64,000 nt of DNA, taken from NCBI GenBank assembly GCA_947624045.1, contig CANQIL010000002.1, positions 2,055-66,054 on the forward strand. Direction: 5' to 3'. Under the pieces are notes generated by a model. That model was given only the letters and a program-made list of their open reading frames with translations. It did not search any database and was not told the origin of the DNA. The position numbers and the translations under genes are program-made. Below, piece after piece: positions 29,638-50,778 of the stretch. This DNA comes from an uncultured Bacilli bacterium. GTDB lineage: Bacteria; Bacillota_I; Bacilli_A; RF39; UBA660. Numbering within the stretch: the stretch's first letter is position 1; every line of letters starts with the position of its first letter.

Positions 29638-29668
29638 AATTAATTGTTATTTGTTATATAATCAAGCC

Positions 29669-29880
29669 AGATGTTTTGATTCTGAGGAGTAAATAATTAT
29701 TTTTATTAAGAGAGTTCATGGTTGGTGCAAATGAATTAAAAAAATTATTGAAGGTAGCAGAGGAACATGATTTCTGAAATTAAGTAAGATATCCCGGATA
29801 ATTCCGTTATAAATTTTAGAGTATAATATAAGGTGGTACCACGAATACTTCGTCCTTAGGGATGGAAGTATTCTTTTTAT
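29669..29880 (+). promoter_or_regulatory. T-box riboswitch leader (tRNA-sensing transcription attenuator), most likely Val-specific
   Basis: Promoter TTGAAA-17-TATAAT (29634-29662). Stem I has AGUA (29688-29691) and GAA (29750-29752) flanking the AATAATT/AATTATT helix, plus AGAGAG and GGTTGGTGCAAAT distal elements. T-box sequence AAGGTGGTACCACG (29830-29843). Terminator GAATACTTC/GAAGTATTC followed by T5. Confidence 0.85.
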
Positions 29881-33256: not shown

Positions 33257-34222
33257 ATGTTAGATTTAGATTTAGATTTACAAATATTACAATTAATAAA
33301 AGAAGATGCTAGTATTAATGAAATTGCTTCTGCTTTAAATATTTCTCATAAAAAAATTTTATATAGATTACAAAATTTACGTAATAAAGGATATACATTT
33401 GTAAAAAAATATTATTCTGATGGTGAAGTTGTTTTTAAAATGAATAATACTTTAGGCATTCCCAAAGATGTTCGCTTAATAACAAAACCTAATGAAAAAG
33501 CCTTAAATATGCTTTTTATTTCTGATTTACACTTTGGAAATGTTAATGAAAGAATAGATTTATTAAAAAGAGTTTATGAAATATGTGCTAAAGAAAATAT
33601 TAATATAATTATAAATGCCGGCGACTTAGTTGATGGTTATTTAGGAACTTCCAGTGATAAGAAATTTCTAAGTTCTGAAGACCAAATTAATCACGTTATA
33701 AAAAAATATCCTTTTGATAAAAATATAATTAATTTTATTTGTTTTGGAGACCATGATTATAGTGTTTTTGAAACGACTGGTCAAAATATTGAAAACGTTT
33801 TAGAAAGATATCGTTATGATTTAGTTCCTTTAGGTTATAAAAATGGTAAATTAAAAATAAAGAATGATGATATTTTAGTAAGTCATTATATAAAAGGTAT
33901 TAACTATAATGAGCCTCCTAGAAATGGCCTTACCGTACTAGGACATAGTCATATAAGTAAATATAACTATGGAGGAAAAAATGCTAATATAACTATCCCT
34001 GCTTTATCTAGTGTAATTTCTAATAGACTACCAGGCTTTTTAAAAGCCAAAGTTTTTTTCAATAAAGGTATTATAAATTTTCTTGAATTAGAAGAATATA
34101 TTTATTTTGATAAATTTTATTTAGTAAATACTTCAGCTATTGAAGTAGCAAGTAATAAAAAAAATAAATCTTTTAAAATAGAAAACGAAGAAATAAGAAC
34201 CCCTTACTGTAAAAAAAAATAA
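33257..34222 (+). CDS. Winged-HTH (AsnC/MarR-like) fused to a metallophosphoesterase domain
   Basis: LQILQLIKEDASINEIASALNISHKKILYRLQNLRNKGY, then FISDLHFGN, AGDLVDG, FGDHD, LGHSH. Confidence 0.6.
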   Translation: MLDLDLDLQILQLIKEDASINEIASALNISHKKILYRLQNLRNKGYTFVKKYYSDGEVVFKMNNTLGIPKDVRLITKPNEKALNMLFISDLHFGNVNERIDLLKRVYEICAKENINIIINAGDLVDGYLGTSSDKKFLSSEDQINHVIKKYPFDKNIINFICFGDHDYSVFETTGQNIENVLERYRYDLVPLGYKNGKLKIKNDDILVSHYIKGINYNEPPRNGLTVLGHSHISKYNYGGKNANITIPALSSVISNRLPGFLKAKVFFNKGIINFLELEEYIYFDKFYLVNTSAIEVASNKKNKSFKIENEEIRTPYCKKK

Positions 34223-34293
34223 AGAAAAAGCTTTACAAATTAAGAAAAATGTAGTATAATTTATACGTTTTTTGAAAAAGGGGGACTTATATT

Positions 34294-35295
34294 ATGAAAT
34301 TTGTTGATTATTATAAGATTTTAAATGTTAATTTAGATGACTCATCAGATATAATTAAGAAAAGTTATCATCGTTTAGTCAAAGTGTATCATCCTGATGA
34401 AAATATAAATAAAAGTGCCGAAGAAAAAGCTCAAAATGAAGCGAAATTAAAAGAAGTTAGTACTGCCTATGAAGTTTTAAGTGATGATTTAAAAAGACTA
34501 GAGTATGATAAGATTTACTATAGACATTTAAGAAATGAAAAGAAATGCGAAAAGTTAAAAAAGATGAATCAAGAAACTACTAATGCTAAAAAAGTCAAAA
34601 CAGATTTTGCAAAAAGACATAGTAATTTTGAAGCAAATATAAATAAGAATTATACCTTTAGTCAAAATACCTTTTTTGCTAATGTAGAAAAGACTACTTT
34701 ACATACTTGTGCTGAGATACTTTATCAATTTAATAAGCTTATTAATAGTACTGCTTTTAAATATGCGATGGAAAATAAATTACTAATAATTGCAACGTTA
34801 GCTTGCCTAATATCACTTACTAATATTAAGGGTAAAGAAATTACTCCAAGAACTATTATAAATGACTCTTTATATGATTTAGACAATTACAAAAGCTATG
34901 TTGATTTAACTAGACTATATGAAGTAAAACAGGGAGATACTTTAGAAGATTTATCTAAAAATACAAACGTACCAGTACATATGATTAAAAGAATTAATAA
35001 TAAATATTCTGATGATTTATCTGAAGGTGAAATTATTACATTACCTTACAAAATACCTAATAGTGAACTAGAGTATTATACTTATTCAGTACCGTATGAT
35101 AGGAATATTTCCTTAGAAGAGTTTGCTTTATTGTATGACACAAGTGCTAGTGATTTAATGGCTTTAAATGAAGAAGCAATTATTTTAAACAATGGTACTT
35201 ATATTGTATTAAGTGATTATTTAAATGTACCTAACTTTATAACTAAAGACGAGTTAGCAGCAAAGAAAGATTCTAAAAGTTTACAAAAAAAGTAA
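34294..35295 (+). CDS. J-domain / TM / LysM membrane protein
   Basis: J domain (DYYKILNV..YHRLVKVYHPDEN), TM LLIIATLACLISLT, LysM (YEVKQGDTLEDLSKNTNVPVHMIKRINN) plus a second degenerate LysM. Confidence 0.65.
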   Translation: MKFVDYYKILNVNLDDSSDIIKKSYHRLVKVYHPDENINKSAEEKAQNEAKLKEVSTAYEVLSDDLKRLEYDKIYYRHLRNEKKCEKLKKMNQETTNAKKVKTDFAKRHSNFEANINKNYTFSQNTFFANVEKTTLHTCAEILYQFNKLINSTAFKYAMENKLLIIATLACLISLTNIKGKEITPRTIINDSLYDLDNYKSYVDLTRLYEVKQGDTLEDLSKNTNVPVHMIKRINNKYSDDLSEGEIITLPYKIPNSELEYYTYSVPYDRNISLEEFALLYDTSASDLMALNEEAIILNNGTYIVLSDYLNVPNFITKDELAAKKDSKSLQKK

Positions 35296-35361
35296 TCAGA
35301 ATATACAACTTATTTAGTACATAATGTTGTATTTTGAAAAAAAATATGATATATTAAATAT

Positions 35362-35479
35362 GTCAAGGAAACTTGCATATAATAAAAAAAGGAACATTCA
35401 ATTTTTGCATGTTGAGTGTTGCCATTAATGTGCATCACCTAATTCATAGCTGAGTTAGGTGATTATTCTTTTATATTTT
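35362..35479 (+). ncRNA. Candidate antitoxin sRNA (copy 1), convergent with and overlapping the 3' end of the 22-aa peptide gene
   Basis: Promoter TTGTAT-17-TATATT (35327-35355). Hairpin ATCACCTAA/TTAGGTGAT (35434-35463) plus a T-rich tail. About 80% identical to copy 2. No conserved ORF. Confidence 0.45.
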
Positions 35480-35539
35480 GAATAGAAGAATTATAATTAT
35501 GATTAATAAAAATAAGACTAAAAAATCTTTTTTATTCAT
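35471..35539 (-). CDS. 22-aa hydrophobic peptide, candidate type I toxin
   Basis: MNKKDFLVLFLLIIIIILLFKI*. RBS GGGAGG 8 nt upstream. Promoter TTGCTT-17-TATAAT on the minus strand (35633-35605). Minus-strand terminator AACACTCAA/TTGAATGTT followed by CCTTTTTTT (35420-35381). Confidence 0.45.
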   Translation of the reverse strand: MNKKDFLVLFLLIIIIILLFKI

Positions 35540-35691
35540 AACAACGGCCTCCCTTCTGTTTACGAAGATAGGCAATCACCCAACTATTGAAAGTTCCTAA
35601 ATTCATTATAAACTAAAATCAAAATAAAAGCAACCAATAAAGTACGTTTTTTTCTCTTGCATTAGAAATAAAAATGTGATATATTAAATAC

Positions 35692-35805
35692 AACAAGGAA
35701 ACTTGCCTAAAATAAAAAAGGAACATTCAATATTGCTCGTTGGGTATTGCCATATGTTTTGACATAACCTAATTCAAAGATGAGTTATGTGATTCTTTTT
35801 ATTTT
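35692..35805 (+). ncRNA. Candidate sRNA (copy 2, paralogue of 35362-35479)
   Basis: Promoter TTGCAT-17-TATATT (35657-35685). Aligns with copy 1 over about 140 nt. Weaker terminal hairpin (ACATAAC/GTTATGT) plus a T-rich tail. Confidence 0.4.
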
Positions 35806-35888
35806 GAATTTACAAATAGTAATACTATATGTAAAAGGATAATGATTATTAAAGATAAAATTAGAAAGTTTTTCTTTCTTTTTTTATC
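35799..35888 (-). pseudogene. Degenerate paralogue of the hydrophobic peptide gene (no canonical start codon or RBS)
   Basis: Open frame DKKRKKNFLILSLIIIILLHIVLLFVNSK*, bounded upstream by TGA. Contains no ATG/GTG/TTG, and only a weak promoter-like sequence lies upstream. Confidence 0.35.
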
Positions 35889-35998
35889 TCAATTTTCTTA
35901 ACAAATTTCAAAAAATGCTTGGTATTTCTTAGAAGATATGCTATAATCTTTACAGAAAGGAGTGGGAACTGACCCACTTCTTATTATTTAGGAGGCCT

Positions 35999-36262
35999 AT
36001 GAAAGAAGAAGTAGAAAAATTAGTTGGAGATAGTATTAAAGACTTAGATGTTTACATTGATGATGTATACACAACTACTGAAGAAGGTAAAAAGCTATTT
36101 AATATTGTCTTAGACAGCAGTCAAGTAATTGATTTAAACAAAATAACAGAAGCATCACGAATAATAAACAAACTTATTGATGATGCCAAATTACTACCTA
36201 CTGATATTGATGAATTAGATATTTTTTCAAAAGAAAAGGGAGATGAATTAGATGAACGGTAA
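35999..36262 (+). CDS. rimP: Ribosome maturation factor RimP, N-terminal domain only
   Basis: Sits directly before nusA and resembles the RimP N-domain (..LFNIVLDSSQVIDLNKITEASRIINKLID..). 87 aa against the usual ~150. RBS AGGAGG. Confidence 0.6.
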   Translation: MKEEVEKLVGDSIKDLDVYIDDVYTTTEEGKKLFNIVLDSSQVIDLNKITEASRIINKLIDDAKLLPTDIDELDIFSKEKGDELDER

Positions 36263-37466
36263 AGAATTTAAAAAGGCACTTGATAATATTGTCAAAGAAA
36301 AAGATATTGACCCAGAAATAGTTTATAATGCGATGGAGTTAGCTTTAACATCAGCTTATAAGAAAAACTTTAAATCTAAAACAAACGTAAAAGTTTTATT
36401 TGATAGGGAAACAGGAGATATAAAAGTCTATTCATACTTAACCGTTGTTCCTGATGATAAGATGACTAAAGAAGAATATGATGATTATGTATTTGAAAGT
36501 TATGCTTTAGATGATGAAAAAGATACTAAGATGGATGAAGAAGAAAAAGAAGAAGCAAGTGAAGAGGAAGAAAGCGAAAAAGCACCTAAACCAAAAGAAA
36601 CTATTTCCTACTTCAATCCTGAAATAGAAATAAAACTAAGTGAAGCTAAAAAGATTGATAAAACTTTAGAAGTAGGGGACACTATTGATACTGAAGTTAC
36701 ACCAAAAGACTTTGGTAGAGTCGCAACATCAACAGCTAAACAAGTAGTTATTCAAAAAATAAGAGAAGCTGAAAGAAACAGTATTATGGAAGAATTTGGT
36801 GATAAGCAAGATGAATTATTAATTGGTACTGTTGCTTTAGAAGATACTGATAATTACTTTATAGACTTAGGAAGAACTAATGGTATATTACCTAAAAAAG
36901 ATATAATTCCAGGTGAAAAAATTGAGATGGGTTCTCAAATAAAAGTCTATGTTTCTAAAGTAGATAACAATGGTAAAAATTTACTTATTTTACTTAGTAG
37001 AAATCATTATGGCTTTGTTAAAAGATTATTTGAACTTGAAATACCAGAACTATCTGATGGAACAGTTATGCTTTACAGTGTCGCAAGAGATGCGGGCAAT
37101 AGAAGTAAAGTAGCAGTTTATTCAGAAAATCCTAATGTAGACCCAATAGGAGCTTGTATTGGTGAAAAAGGTTCTAGAATAGCTCGTATCATCGAAGAGT
37201 TACATGGTGAAAAACTAGATGTTGTTCGTTATGATAAAGACCCAGCTGTCTTTATTGAAAATGCCCTAGCTCCTGCTAAAGAATTAACTGTTTGTATAAC
37301 AGATGCTAAAAAGCAAGAAGCTATGGTTATAGCTGATGGTGATAATTTCTCCTTGGCTATAGGTAAAAAAGGACAAAATGCTCGTCTAGCCTCTAAACTT
37401 ACACACTATAAAATAGATATAAAAACAACCGAACAAGCCAGAGAAGCCGGAATAAACTTTAGATAA
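36252..37466 (+). CDS. nusA: Transcription termination/antitermination factor NusA
   Basis: NTD, S1 (IGTVALEDTDNYFIDLG), two KH domains (GACIGEKGSRIARI, LAIGKKGQNARLAS). Acidic insertion near aa 70-115. Confidence 0.93.
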   Translation: MNGKEFKKALDNIVKEKDIDPEIVYNAMELALTSAYKKNFKSKTNVKVLFDRETGDIKVYSYLTVVPDDKMTKEEYDDYVFESYALDDEKDTKMDEEEKEEASEEEESEKAPKPKETISYFNPEIEIKLSEAKKIDKTLEVGDTIDTEVTPKDFGRVATSTAKQVVIQKIREAERNSIMEEFGDKQDELLIGTVALEDTDNYFIDLGRTNGILPKKDIIPGEKIEMGSQIKVYVSKVDNNGKNLLILLSRNHYGFVKRLFELEIPELSDGTVMLYSVARDAGNRSKVAVYSENPNVDPIGACIGEKGSRIARIIEELHGEKLDVVRYDKDPAVFIENALAPAKELTVCITDAKKQEAMVIADGDNFSLAIGKKGQNARLASKLTHYKIDIKTTEQAREAGINFR

Positions 37467-37726
37467 TGAAAAAAAGAAAAATACCTTTAAGAACGTGTGT
37501 AGTTACTAAAGAAACATTACCTAAACAAGAACTTTTACGTATCGTAAAAAATAAAGATGGTGAAGTAAAAGTTGATGAAACTGGAAAATTAAACGGTAGA
37601 GGAGCATATATTAAAAAAGATATTGCTGTTTTAGAACAAGCAATAAAAAATAAAACATTAGAAAAAAAATTAGAATGTGAAATAGAGGATAGTATCTATG
37701 ATGAAATAAGAAGAATAATAAAATAG
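37466..37726 (+). CDS. ylxR: YlxR/RnpM-family (DUF448) RNA-binding protein
   Basis: PLRTCVVTKE...LLRIV...GRGAYI pattern, in the conserved nusA-infB position. Confidence 0.85.
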   Translation: MKKRKIPLRTCVVTKETLPKQELLRIVKNKDGEVKVDETGKLNGRGAYIKKDIAVLEQAIKNKTLEKKLECEIEDSIYDEIRRIIK

Positions 37727-50469: not shown

Positions 50470-50704
50470 AATAACCTTCCTTCTACACTAAAAGCTTAAA
50501 TCTTACAAATTAATCATACTATTTTAAATTGATAAATTCAATATAATTATTATCTTTTCTCACAAAATACTTTTTTCTAATAATTTGTGTCATAATAAAC
50601 AGCAAGTTTTTTGATTGTTCCATAATTTATTTATCCAAATTATATAACATAAACTCTACCATTTTAAAACTCGAACTAATTAAAAGTTCGAGTATCAATC
50701 AATC

Positions 50705-50778
50705 TGGTGCCGAAAGTAAGAATTGAACTTACCGCTGATCCTTACCAAGGATCTGTTTTACCACTAAACTATATCGGC
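50705..50778 (-). tRNA. tRNA-Thr (anticodon GGU), CCA encoded
   Basis: Reverse complement is GCCGATATAGTTTAGTGGTAAAACAGATCCTTGGTAAGGATCAGCGGTAAGTTCAATTCTTACTTTCGGCACCA. One U-U at position 6-67. Hairpin ACTCGAAC/GTTCGAGT lies downstream. Confidence 0.85.

Follow-up and report, generated by a model that had tools for sequence, protein, structure and literature searches.

A pair of tandem repeats in a 64,000-nucleotide stretch of contig CANQIL010000002.1 from an uncultured Bacilli bacterium (the whole stretch is hereafter called the window) probably constitutes two copies of a chromosomal type I toxin-antitoxin (TA)-like module belonging to a previously undescribed family. The module would be a new family of a known kind, in which a tiny, previously unannotated membrane-peptide gene faces the gene of a small antisense RNA (sRNA). 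The type I TA reading of these predicted elements is supported by comparative data, and the generic marks of such systems are found in silico: a small (< 60 aa) hydrophobic ORF that is coding and carries translation signals, and an antisense sRNA gene with a promoter and a terminator. We use "toxin" and "antitoxin" below for the putative roles of the two products.

Organization of the locus

The two copies form a direct tandem repeat in DNA of 26% GC, copy 1 being complete and copy 2 decayed (Table 1). A first-pass annotation, made from the sequence alone, had described copy 1 as a peptide gene convergent with an sRNA gene; on reading the sequence again, we found the minus-strand promoter, 5' UTR, ATG, ORF and hairpin all where it had placed them, together with the plus-strand promoter and the hairpin with its T-rich tail, the latter hairpin being recovered by a terminator scan as well. 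In all, that scan returns 3 terminator-like sites in 1.3 kb versus 0.1 expected. A simple promoter scan lists neither of the copy 1 promoters; both -35 boxes match in TTG only.

Table 1. Features of the two module copies, in window coordinates.
Feature	Position	Strand	Details
Copy 1, complete	35327-35633		
sRNA copy 1 promoter	35327-35355	+	-35 TTGTAT 35327-35332, 17-nt spacer, -10 TATATT 35350-35355; TG before the -10 gives an extended -10, TGATATATT; read directly
Antitoxin-like sRNA copy 1, ~115 nt	35362-35476	+	covariance-model match, 115.8 bits, E = 3.6e-18
sRNA hairpin 1 (HP1)	35364-35375	+	CAAG-GAAA-CUUG
sRNA hairpin 2 (HP2)	35391-35423	+	covariation in the family
sRNA hairpin 3 (HP3), intrinsic terminator	35434-35463	+	T-rich tail to 35472-35479; terminator scan; AUCACCUAA at 35434-35442
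Predicted sRNA/toxin mRNA overlap	35383-35476		
Predicted toxin mRNA, ~216 nt	~35598 to ~35383	-	predicted transcription start ~A35598
Toxin mRNA promoter	35605-35633	-	-35 TTGCTT 35633-35628, 17-nt spacer, -10 TATAAT 35610-35605; read directly
Toxin mRNA 5' UTR, ~59 nt	35540-35598	-	U1 GGAACUUUCAAU 35597-35586; U2 GUUGGGUGAUUGCC 35584-35571, including the box UUGGGUGAU 35583-35575; anti-SD CCUAUCUUC 35572-35564; SD GAAGGGAGG 35556-35548; family-conserved
Toxin-like ORF, 22 aa	35471-35539	-	MNKKDFLVLFLLIIIIILLFKI; ATG 35539, stop 35473-35471; aligned to the family with a 15-nt gap
Toxin mRNA 3' UTR	35383-35470	-	complement of HP3 (35463-35434); terminator hairpin GGCAACACUCAA/UUGAAUGUUCC 35423-35391; U-run 35390-35383
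Copy 2, decayed	35657-35888		
sRNA copy 2 promoter	35657-35685	+	TTGCAT, 17-nt spacer, TGTGATATATT; direct repeat 83-89% identical to copy 1
sRNA copy 2	35692-35802	+	covariance-model match, 98.5 bits, E = 4.3e-15; 3 non-standard pairs (one in HP2, two in HP3)
Second toxin ORF remnant (...KNFLILSLIIIILLHIVLLFVNSK*)	35799-35888	-	minus-strand translation; without start codon, SD, 5' UTR or promoter

The toxin-dead copy 2 had been overlooked at first pass. Its toxin remnant has no ATG, GTG or TTG ORF in the ORF list, and the similarity of copy 2 to the family stops ~170 nt past the sRNA anchor. As read here, copy 2 is an orphan antitoxin: the putative sRNA gene has been kept, and the toxin promoter, 5' UTR, Shine-Dalgarno sequence (SD) and start codon have been lost.

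The peptide gene

The 22-aa ORF reported earlier is present in copy 1; what had escaped notice is that its product is the 27-aa peptide of the family (consensus MNKKDFLILSLVIIIFLLLFLLFIVLI) in shortened form, 5 codons having been deleted in frame from the hydrophobic core and the C-terminus being altered. Across the family the coding signature is clear: there are 61 distinct alleles, each of exactly 27 codons, with an invariant ATG and with stop codons that interchange among TAA, TGA and TAG; the codon-position entropy of these 27-codon alleles is 17.6/5.0/20.0 at positions 1/2/3, and their pN/pS is 0.29. Length variants and indels of the ORF are likewise in frame. Comparison shows that the predicted ORF is under purifying selection as coding sequence. 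Other members too encode peptides of 22-24 aa (L149 and L142); two 22-aa genes among them stand in tandem, with their sRNAs intact. The hydrophobic run of the window peptide spans 15-16 residues and may be too short to cross a membrane fully, so copy 1 may be weakened as a toxin.

Motifs of characterised toxins are missing: the window peptide and the consensus alike are free of Pro and Gly, and have no PXXXG or charged tail. Searches of Pfam and NCBIfam at E <= 10 gave chance-level matches only, the best being HokA (E = 0.12; 12 bits against a cut-off of 89), and a 52-aa read-through form used as protein query retrieved only 7 unnamed ORFs among 5.8 billion database proteins.

The toxin mRNA

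The toxin promoter is well conserved: TATAAT is perfect in 60 of 79 family members and matches at 5 or more of its 6 positions in 75 of 79, and TTGnnn is present in 64 of 79. The SD, ~7 nt upstream of the ATG, is fixed in the family, as is the ATG itself. Occlusion of the SD in cis, proposed at first pass, is supported by RNAfold, which pairs the anti-SD with the SD; the hairpin is predicted both in the 5' part alone and in the full-length mRNA, the SD core being paired at 0.55 in the former versus 0.92 in the latter. At the other end, the terminator hairpin is followed by U7, and the corresponding minus-strand T-run follows the hairpin in the two window copies and in the family at large. The whole predicted mRNA folds with z = -6.0, and 0 of 200 shuffles fold as well.

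The first-pass annotation had also proposed ~100 nt of perfect complementarity between the 3' ends of the two RNAs. The predicted overlap is indeed ~90-100 nt long, fully complementary, and takes in the entire toxin 3' UTR; of the ORF itself it covers only the stop codon and about 2 codons (at most 2-3). [quoted passage not shown]

The antisense sRNA and its predicted contacts

The sRNA promoter, TTGnnn-16/18-TGnTAnnnT, is present in 107 of 121 members at a constant distance from HP1. The sRNA folds with z = -4.8, a stability that 0 of 200 shuffles reach. In HP2 and HP3 taken together, pairing stands at 98.5%, both partners have changed in 9 pairs, and 0 of 500 shuffles are equal to this, the sequences being related so that such shuffle controls overstate the significance of covariation. 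HP1 was placed in two registers by MAFFT and was therefore missed by RNAalifold; assessed hairpin by hairpin, it is folded in 33 of 35 sequences through 22 different stems, the first set of family sequences having been selected by HP1 and HP2 motifs. Because of many U·G pairs, HP2 is stronger on the sRNA strand.

Further complementarities involve the 5' end of the toxin mRNA. Its first ~27 nt are an imperfect copy of HP2, and U1 can pair with the 12 nt that immediately precede the mRNA U-run, with 11.7 of 12 positions paired in the family and compensatory changes between them. The resulting long-range 5'-3' helix appears in the minimum-energy fold of 71 of 73 family mRNAs and is also predicted for the window mRNA. 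U2, a 9-12-nt box ~15 nt upstream of the SD, covaries with the 5' arm of HP3; the complementarity of the 9-nt box to the sRNA that the earlier reading had pointed out is present in the window (UUGGGUGAU to AUCACCUAA) and recurs family-wide, being paired in 87 of 93 cases with 0 of 5000 shuffles as good, a control that the relatedness of the sequences again makes too generous. The mRNA's own 3' UTR has the same complementary sequence as the sRNA, and cognate versus non-cognate duplex energies do not separate the two partners. We used box-by-box pair counts here, as whole-length RNAduplex predictions for the sRNA and the 5' UTR contain long internal loops and are uninterpretable.

Family distribution and genomic setting

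An sRNA-anchored scan places the ~430-bp family element in at least 117 stretches from at least ~100 MAGs of uncultured gut Bacilli/'Tenericutes', and a toxin-anchored scan finds it in 55 metagenome contigs. The element is often multi-copy, with several per genome, or tandem; besides the window, tandem arrays are seen at L059, L104, L126 (4 matches) and L149. The convergent arrangement of a peptide gene with an antisense sRNA that overlaps its 3' UTR holds throughout the family, and the co-conservation of peptide and sRNA in related genomes, suggested earlier as a check, is seen in covariance-model and sequence scans of MAG and metagenome contigs. Every toxin gene with enough flank has a convergent sRNA gene, 46 loci having covariance-model matches, and variant subfamilies carry their own sRNA. 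Conversely, ~24 sRNA genes, including that of window copy 2, lie beside a truncated, start-less or missing toxin; one locus, L147, is without both the hydrophobic peptide and the sRNA. The predicted toxin is never without an sRNA in the sampled loci and an orphan sRNA is tolerated, an asymmetry that appears typical of TA systems.

Directly after tRNA genes lie 26-37% of family members, an adjacency that the first-pass annotation had overlooked. In these tRNA-adjacent modules the -35 box of the sRNA promoter is inside the tRNA terminator hairpin, and at least one of them (L093) has no separate promoter. We rejected the idea that the module carries tRNA-proximal sequence along with it, as in transposon-like targeting: a GATTGAT-plus-hairpin trailer also follows a module-free tRNA of the window, and we therefore assign the trailer to the tRNA genes, with the module beginning downstream of it. 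Phage records (50,697), plasmids (72,556) and IMG/VR gave no match that would point to a mobile element as the origin. In the window the module lies between a DnaJ-LysM gene and rimP-nusA, a setting shared by 0 of 174 other loci, so the insertion site is specific to the window genome.

The first-pass annotation had named, as an outcome that would speak against it, a match of the region to a known cis-regulatory leader of rimP-nusA. No such match was found, and we rejected the identity: rimP has its own promoter-like site and a hairpin at 35919-35982, outside the module. No Rfam family matches the element, either at E <= 10 over 34000-37500 or at gathering score over the whole window; elsewhere in the window, Rfam matches are limited to a T-box and two tRNAs. 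The literature that we searched held nothing relevant on the peptide, on toxin-antitoxin systems in RF39, or on type I TA systems with tRNA or in Mollicutes.

Alternative explanations

The coding and antisense signals by themselves establish no more than a translated hydrophobic peptide and an antisense RNA, which is also what one would expect of a conserved gene for a small membrane protein under antisense control; the peptide would then be harmless or useful (one that modulates a transporter or sensor, for instance), with the sRNA tuning its level and no TA function. That the peptide matches no known toxin family, and that the modules are chromosomal and absent from the searched phages, plasmids and viral contigs, fits such a gene. 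However, the modules occur in multi-copy genomes, in tandem arrays and at many independent insertion sites, and their peptide gene is often decayed with the sRNA retained and is never found without the sRNA, all of which typifies selfish TA modules rather than a housekeeping small protein; and two layers of translational silencing suggest a product that needs to be kept off. We consider this explanation improbable. A non-coding repeat, that is, a terminator or insulator cassette spreading in intergenic regions and especially after tRNA operons, with an ORF that is an accident of AT-rich DNA, could account for a module made mostly of hairpins with T-runs on both strands and for the 26-37% of copies directly behind tRNA genes, and short hydrophobic ORFs do arise easily at 26% GC. 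It is nevertheless very hard to reconcile with an ORF that lies outside the hairpins and yet keeps its 27-codon length, ATG, SD and stop position while stop codons interchange, with variation almost wholly at codon positions 1 and 3 and indels in frame, or with two conserved promoters that face each other.

A different doubt concerns the window alone, where the module might be an inactive relic of a TA family, with copy 2 dead and copy 1 encoding a shortened, non-toxic peptide kept by drift. Toxin decay is common in the family, copy 2 is left without a toxin start codon, SD or promoter and with 3 of its sRNA pairs broken, and copy 1 itself is missing 15 nt, in frame, from the hydrophobic core, and its peptide has a changed C-terminus. 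Against this, the regulatory elements of copy 1 are all intact (both promoters, SD, anti-SD, U1, U2 and three hairpins), and peptides of 22-24 aa are found elsewhere in the family, as in the tandem 22-aa pair with intact sRNAs (L149, L142). Characterised type I toxins as short as this also exist, the Ibs peptides being 18-19 aa long. We regard a relic as rather unlikely, and a type I TA-like module remains our preferred reading of the locus.

Proposed mechanism

Under the TA reading, a promoter with a weak -35 box would drive an mRNA of ~216 nt that encodes a membrane-type peptide of 22 aa, and on the opposite strand a stronger, extended -10 promoter would drive an sRNA of ~115 nt. The sRNA would stop at its own terminator within the mRNA 3' UTR, and it is therefore over those ~90-100 nt that the RNAs would be fully complementary. 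The toxin mRNA would be silent in cis, with a local hairpin burying the SD and with its first ~27 nt pairing with both arms of its own 3' terminator hairpin in the long-range helix. The sRNA would pair with the toxin 3' UTR, contact probably beginning at the complementary hairpin-3 loops, and this pairing would lead to cleavage of the duplex and decay, by analogy with bsrG/SR4 and txpA/RatA. Pairing of U2 with the hairpin-3 arm of the sRNA is a possible second contact beside the SD. In this model the long-range helix and the sRNA would compete for one 3' site, and simple binding of the sRNA would release the 5' UTR, silencing or activating translation.

More tentatively, and with considerable doubt, the family might combine two unusual properties: a three-partner RNA switch, and an antitoxin supply coupled to the transcription of tRNA operons. 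In the switch, the mRNA 5' end, as a degenerate HP2 copy, would compete with the antitoxin for the mRNA 3' terminator, U2 and hairpin 3 would provide a further contact, and the choice would be among storage, decay and translation. As for supply, modules seem to settle preferentially right behind tRNA operon terminators; given that position and the locus without a separate sRNA promoter (L093), antitoxin supply could be coupled to tRNA operon transcription, and so follow growth rate.

Significance

To our knowledge, almost nothing is known of the regulatory RNA biology of uncultured small-genome gut Bacilli; to this the present work would add an abundant multi-copy family in such bacteria from rabbits, ruminants, mice and humans. 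Its more than 150 variants form a natural dataset on toxin mRNA silencing, covering the SD hairpin, 5'-3' pairing, antisense pairing and several covarying specificity classes, and the strong association with tRNA flanks raises the testable question of where and why such modules insert. A covariance model together with a peptide profile would annotate hundreds of blank intergenic regions and would explain assembly breaks at module repeats. Type I TA systems are considered narrowly distributed and hard to find, their toxins being too short for gene callers (PMC12390103, PMC8594479).

Comparison with known type I systems

The layout that the first-pass annotation had likened to bsrG/SR4 and txpA/RatA is indeed similar, with both the peptide and the RNA falling outside those families. 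BsrG is 38 aa long and TxpA 59 aa. As in bsrG/SR4 of the Bacillus subtilis SPβ prophage, the module here has convergent RNAs with a 3' overlap, a small hydrophobic peptide and an SD in a cis helix. It differs in having no sequence, Rfam or Pfam kinship to that system, in an sRNA that hardly reaches into the ORF, in an mRNA whose 5' end is predicted to form a helix with the mRNA's own terminator, in lying outside a prophage, and in a peptide of 22-27 aa versus 38. In bsrG/SR4 the short helix that sequesters the SD is affected by antitoxin binding at the distant 3' end, first contact is made via the terminator loop, and the antitoxin influences translation as well as decay (PMC3834814). With txpA/RatA of the B. 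subtilis skin element the module shares convergent transcription and a 3' overlap of ~100 nt or more, whereas no homology was found in NCBIfam, Pfam or Rfam, and TxpA is longer and unrelated in sequence. RatA is thought to act via duplex formation and RNase III-dependent decay (PMC3531473; layout in PMC8594479). In the TxpA/RatA family the overlap extends into the 3' part of the ORF (PMC8594479); here, unlike in TxpA/RatA and BsrG/SR4, the T-tail of the sRNA, ending at 35472-35479, reaches the stop and at most 2-3 codons of an ORF that ends at 35471.

The par system (Fst/RNA II of Enterococcus faecalis pAD1; Fst/Ldr) resembles the module in its convergent promoters, its overlap in the terminator and 3' UTR, and its uncovered ORF, and further in an SD-hiding stem-loop and a sequestered 5' end (both predicted here), in N-terminal Lys/Asp charges and, as a candidate likeness only, in a second complementary region within the 5' portion of the toxin mRNA. 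In par/Fst the toxin mRNA folds back on itself, with the SD hidden in a stem-loop and the extreme 5' end sequestered in a helix, and a direct repeat in the DNA, transcribed both ways, creates the second complementary region (PMC7472228; PMC8594479). Fst has an essential PXXXG in its transmembrane segment and a charged C-terminal tail (PMC7472228), both missing here, and there is no Pfam match at E <= 10; the Rfam covariance model of RNA II likewise has no match on the element, at E <= 10 or gathering score. Unlike par, the module has two separate terminators (HP3 on the plus strand, HP2 on the minus) instead of one shared bidirectional terminator, an overlap of ~100 nt, an sRNA of ~115 nt with three hairpins versus ~40-65 nt, and one box (U2) upstream of the SD versus DRa/DRb flanking the start site. 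The 3'-only overlap that leaves out the ORF is also found in SprA1/SprA1AS of Staphylococcus aureus, where the functional pairing takes place outside the overlap (PMC8594479); its toxin PepA1 belongs to the Fst family, with no homology here, and the contact outside the overlap is in our case only a possible one.

With the Gram-negative hok/sok and aapA/IsoA systems the module shares a full-length mRNA predicted to be locked by 5'-3' pairing with the SD buried, and an organization in tandem, multi-copy chromosomal families. HokA is the only similarity to the hok/sok side and is at chance level, its score (E = 0.12) falling well short of the cut-off. The antisense RNA of hok/sok and aapA/IsoA is directed against the 5' region and is contained wholly in the mRNA (PMC8594479), whereas here the sRNA is predicted to target the 3' end, at a site with which the mRNA's own 5' end would also pair.

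Anatomy and setting of the locus

On the comparative evidence below, the locus upstream of rimP-nusA probably comprises a complete and a decayed copy of a type I toxin-antitoxin-like module whose family is new and widespread; the kind of system is already known. The first-pass annotation had described the complete copy (copy 1) as a 22-aa peptide gene convergent with an sRNA, and a direct reading of the sequence finds the minus-strand promoter, 5'-UTR pairing, start codon, ORF and 3' hairpin, as well as the plus-strand promoter and the hairpin with its T-rich tail, where it placed them. In this window of ~26% G+C, the terminator scan returns 3 terminator-like sites in the region vs 0.1 expected, and both predicted RNAs fold well (sRNA, 35362-35476, z = -4.8; mRNA, 35598-35383, z = -6.0), with 0 of 200 shuffles as good in either case. 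Neither module promoter is listed by a simple promoter scan of the region because the -35 boxes agree only at TTG; despite the missed scan, conservation across the family upholds both as putative promoters.

Features of the two module copies in the window
Feature	Position	Strand	Remarks
Gap holding the module			700 bp; between DnaJ-LysM gene (34294-35295) and rimP-nusA-ylxR-infB (35999 onward)
Copy 1 toxin mRNA promoter	35633-35605	minus	TTGCTT-17-TATAAT; read from sequence
Copy 1 toxin mRNA 5' UTR		minus	~59 nt; CCUAUCUUC able to pair with GAAGGGAGG
Copy 1 toxin-like ORF	ATG 35539, stop 35473-35471	minus	Product MNKKDFLVLFLLIIIIILLFKI
Copy 1 mRNA 3' hairpin	U7 near 35383	minus	Hairpin, then U7
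Copy 1 sRNA promoter	35327-35355	plus	TTGTAT-17-TATATT, TG in front (extended -10)
Copy 1 sRNA hairpin	35434-35463	plus	T-rich tail; also picked up by terminator scan
Copy 2 sRNA promoter	35657-35685	plus	Kept
Copy 2 sRNA	35692-35802	plus	Nearly intact, three broken pairs
Copy 2 toxin remnant	35799-35888	minus	...KNFLILSLIIIILLHIVLLFVNSK, then stop; final two-thirds of ORF only

The element is tandemly duplicated with a period of ~330 bp, which the first-pass annotation overlooked. The sRNA of the second copy scores 98.5 bits with the covariance model vs 115.8 bits for copy 1, and its toxin lacks start codon, Shine-Dalgarno (SD) sequence, 5' UTR and promoter; judged from its sequence, copy 2 is an orphan antitoxin, an sRNA gene beside a start-less 3' toxin fragment. 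Repeat and covariance-model searches find no further copies in the 64-kb window.

Between the module and rimP, the stretch 35919-35998 holds a promoter-like site (TTGGTA-17-TATAAT with TG) just before the rimP SD and ATG, and a G+C-rich terminator-like hairpin (35957-35982); it is possibly a rimP-nusA leader or attenuator, distinct from the module. The rimP ORF itself (35999-36262) is only 87 aa, unusually short for RimP, overlaps the nusA start and gives a weak N-terminal-domain match (E = 5e-4). Elsewhere in the window, a T-box leader (127.8 bits, 29667-29860) precedes an HD-domain gene and valS.

Distribution of the family

A pattern anchored on the sRNA, consisting of two blocks common to both window copies (AAGGAAACTTGC...GGAACATTCAA), matches at least 117 stretches in a one-genome-per-species collection, and a second, independent scan of metagenomes, anchored only on the toxin SD, start and first five codons, matches 57 contigs, 55 of them genuine. 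The sRNA-anchored matches listed come from ~100 assemblies, several holding 2-3 loci, nearly all of them MAGs labelled uncultured Bacilli, Tenericutes, Bacillales or Firmicutes, from rabbit, mouse, ruminant and human gut. The conserved block is ~430 bp, and modules often lie in tandem arrays, the most extensive (L126) giving four sRNA hits. The module has no match in phage, plasmid or viral-contig collections, and in none of the other loci collected does it lie at the rimP site. The window's DnaJ-LysM protein is also encoded on two short-read contigs (L001 and L002), from independent assemblies of the same organism, and both end at window 35376, inside sRNA hairpin 1, as expected of a multi-copy repeat; such breaks are consistent with further copies of the conserved 5' part of the sRNA in that organism's genome.

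The peptide

An intact opposite-strand ORF is present in 82 of the 121 sRNA-anchored elements among the matches listed, at a fixed distance, with GAAGGGAGG in front and the consensus product MNKKDFLILSLVIIIFLLLFLLFIVLI. All 61 distinct alleles of 27 codons begin with ATG and stop at TAA, TGA or TAG, with a codon-position entropy of 17.6/5.0/20.0 and a pN/pS of 0.29; Leu codons swap among TTA, CTA, CTT and TTG, and length variants of 22-29 aa are in frame every time. By this signature the family peptide is a real coding sequence. The window peptide differs from the family by a 15-nt in-frame deletion within the hydrophobic core, and peptides of 22-24 aa occur in other members too; in one case two 22-aa genes lie in tandem. 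Protein databases hold the peptide as 7 unnamed ORFs only; it has no Pfam or NCBIfam family and was not found in the searchable open-access literature.

Beside a second toxin type, of 30 aa (MKKRIF.../MKTKTF...), the sRNA keeps its 5' part and has another hairpin 3. Related modules (L039, some +330 past its first module, L084 and L117; L004, L041, L078, L093, L097 and L102) have the sRNA promoter in common, together with hairpin 1 and the A-rich 5' part; their 3' hairpins differ (GGAATACCTAAT...), and the 30-aa type of peptide occurs with them. The 5' part of the sRNA has the look of a unit that is shared and can be exchanged.

The sRNA and its association with the toxin

The sRNA promoter (TTGnnn at 16-18 nt plus TGnTAnnnT) is found in 107 of 121 elements among the matches listed, with constant spacing to hairpin 1. 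Structure was judged on an alignment of 33 sRNAs and the two window copies; since the 33 were found through the toxin, they are unbiased for sRNA sequence. RNAalifold predicts hairpins 2 and 3, which are 98.5% paired with both-side changes in 9 of 17 pairs, a level that 0 of 500 shuffles and no slid register come near. Hairpin 1, which MAFFT misaligned and which was analysed separately, forms in 33 of 35 sequences with 22 different stems and a mostly GAAA loop. Hairpin 2 has many U·G pairs on the sRNA strand that become A·C mismatches in the mRNA, which argues that selection for the structure acts on the sRNA strand. Together, these patterns indicate that the sRNA gene is genuine and its product structured. 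The T-tail of hairpin 3 lies on the plus strand and the T-run of hairpin 2 on the minus strand, so that each RNA would have its own terminator hairpin; the 3' complementarity noted in the first-pass annotation is thus predicted to span ~90-100 nt.

No toxin gene with sufficient 3' flank lacks a convergent sRNA gene. Covariance-model hits are obtained at 46 loci, and divergent subfamilies (L122, L131, L149 and L151) have a promoter and two hairpins of their own. The sole locus with the toxin 5' region on an unrelated ORF, L147 (2826-2900), joins the first six codons of the toxin, along with its promoter, 5' UTR and SD, to a non-hydrophobic ORF and has no sRNA gene. Conversely, sRNA-anchored elements with enough flank include, among the matches listed, ~11 with 5'-truncated toxins (the class of window copy 2), 2 with the start codon lost and ~11 with no toxin at all. 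This pattern, in these loci toxin never without sRNA and sRNA often beside decayed toxin, is an asymmetry of toxin-antitoxin type.

Predicted control of the toxin mRNA

In the toxin promoter the -10 is near-perfect (TATAAT in 60 of 79) and the -35 poor, and the sRNA promoter is predicted to be the stronger. Conserved parts of the 5' UTR are two boxes, U1 (GGAACAUUUAAU) and U2 (GUUGGGUGAUUGCC), an anti-SD and the SD, which is buried by a local hairpin when the 5' part is folded alone. Because U1 plus U2 imperfectly copies sRNA hairpin 2, it is complementary to each arm of the terminator hairpin in the same mRNA. The resulting 5'-3' helix appears in the full-length minimum-energy fold of 71 of 73 mRNAs and of the window mRNA, and predicted SD-core pairing rises from 0.55 (5' part alone) to 0.92 (full length). 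In the unbiased set, U1 pairs with the last 12 nt ahead of the U-run at 11.7 of 12 positions in 22 different combinations (for example GGAACACGUGAU with AUCGCGUGUUCC).

The nucleotide 3' of GGGUG in U2 covaries with the base of hairpin 3 (A-U 36, G-C 34, C-G 6, G-U 7), 87 of 93 being paired vs a shuffle mean of 57, and 0 of 5000 shuffles reach 87; the corresponding terminator-arm position is invariant. U2 therefore appears also to pair, in some state, with the 5' arm of hairpin 3. The first-pass annotation had noted that this 5'-UTR segment matches the sRNA and, with it, the mRNA's own 3' part: the pairing stands, and the partner may be either the sRNA or the mRNA 3' UTR, both of which contain the arm.

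The most economical model of the probable control, built on structure and covariation, has three steps. Full-length toxin mRNA would be stored silent; the sRNA would pair with the mRNA 3' UTR and lead to decay, as in bsrG/SR4 and txpA/RatA (PMC3834814, PMC3531473); and a further, translational layer may come from the U2 contact, like DRa/DRb in par (PMC7472228). Binding of the sRNA should also separate the two paired ends of the mRNA, which may either silence or activate translation.

tRNA neighbourhood and other flanks

Among the matches listed, 45 of 121 modules start 82-86 nt past the CCA end of a same-strand tRNA gene, with 15 different anticodon types (L053, for example, begins ~85 nt after tRNA-Met, and L029 follows tRNA-Thr). 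The adjacency is replicated at 11 of 43 toxin-anchored loci, giving a share of 26-37% across the two sets; the window copy is among the majority without an adjoining tRNA. The first ~35 nt past the tRNA are GATTGAT and a hairpin. In the window, GATTGAT, a hairpin (CTCGAAC...GTTCGAG) and a T-run lie on the minus strand at 50650-50704, downstream of tRNA-Thr (50705-50778), which has no module behind it though its trailer matches that of tRNA-adjacent modules elsewhere. The trailer thus belongs to the tRNA gene, and looks like a lineage-wide trailer or terminator motif. The module proper opens with another terminator hairpin, which covaries, and the sRNA -35 box falls within that hairpin's 5' arm and loop.

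At L093 the sRNA begins 33 nt past tRNA-Lys, with nothing recognisable as an sRNA promoter in the interval from the tRNA to hairpin 1, and may be co-transcribed with the tRNA and then released by processing. Many loci (L053, L029 and L022 among them) carry an extra conserved ~70-nt block beyond the toxin promoter, at +270 to +340 from the sRNA anchor (...TTGACAATTTAGAAAACACACTTGCATATTGACAAAnCAATAT, palindrome ATATTG-N6-7-CAATAT); it is absent from the window and could be an outward promoter or operator.

Comparison with known systems

The type I reading of the first-pass annotation is supported by the coding signature, sRNA covariation and toxin-sRNA asymmetry, and a peptide and antisense pair of toxin-antitoxin type is the likely identity of the module, a matter for RNA and toxin-antitoxin specialists and for those annotating uncultured gut Bacilli. 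Its txpA/RatA- and bsrG/SR4-type layout holds as far as convergence and 3' overlap go and does not extend to family membership, Rfam, Pfam and NCBIfam giving no hit for the module; nor did we find a published description of the family in open-access text. T1TAdb lists 24 families, and the layout matches the Gram-positive 3'-overlap families (PMC8594479). In logic the module is closest to bsrG/SR4; in an overlap that spares the ORF, and in a second complementarity within the 5' UTR, it is closest to par/Fst and SprA1; and the predicted 5'-3' lock of the mRNA resembles hok and aapA. Unlike par/Fst it has no PXXXG motif, charged tail or shared bidirectional terminator, and it has no prophage context; it is a member of none of these systems.
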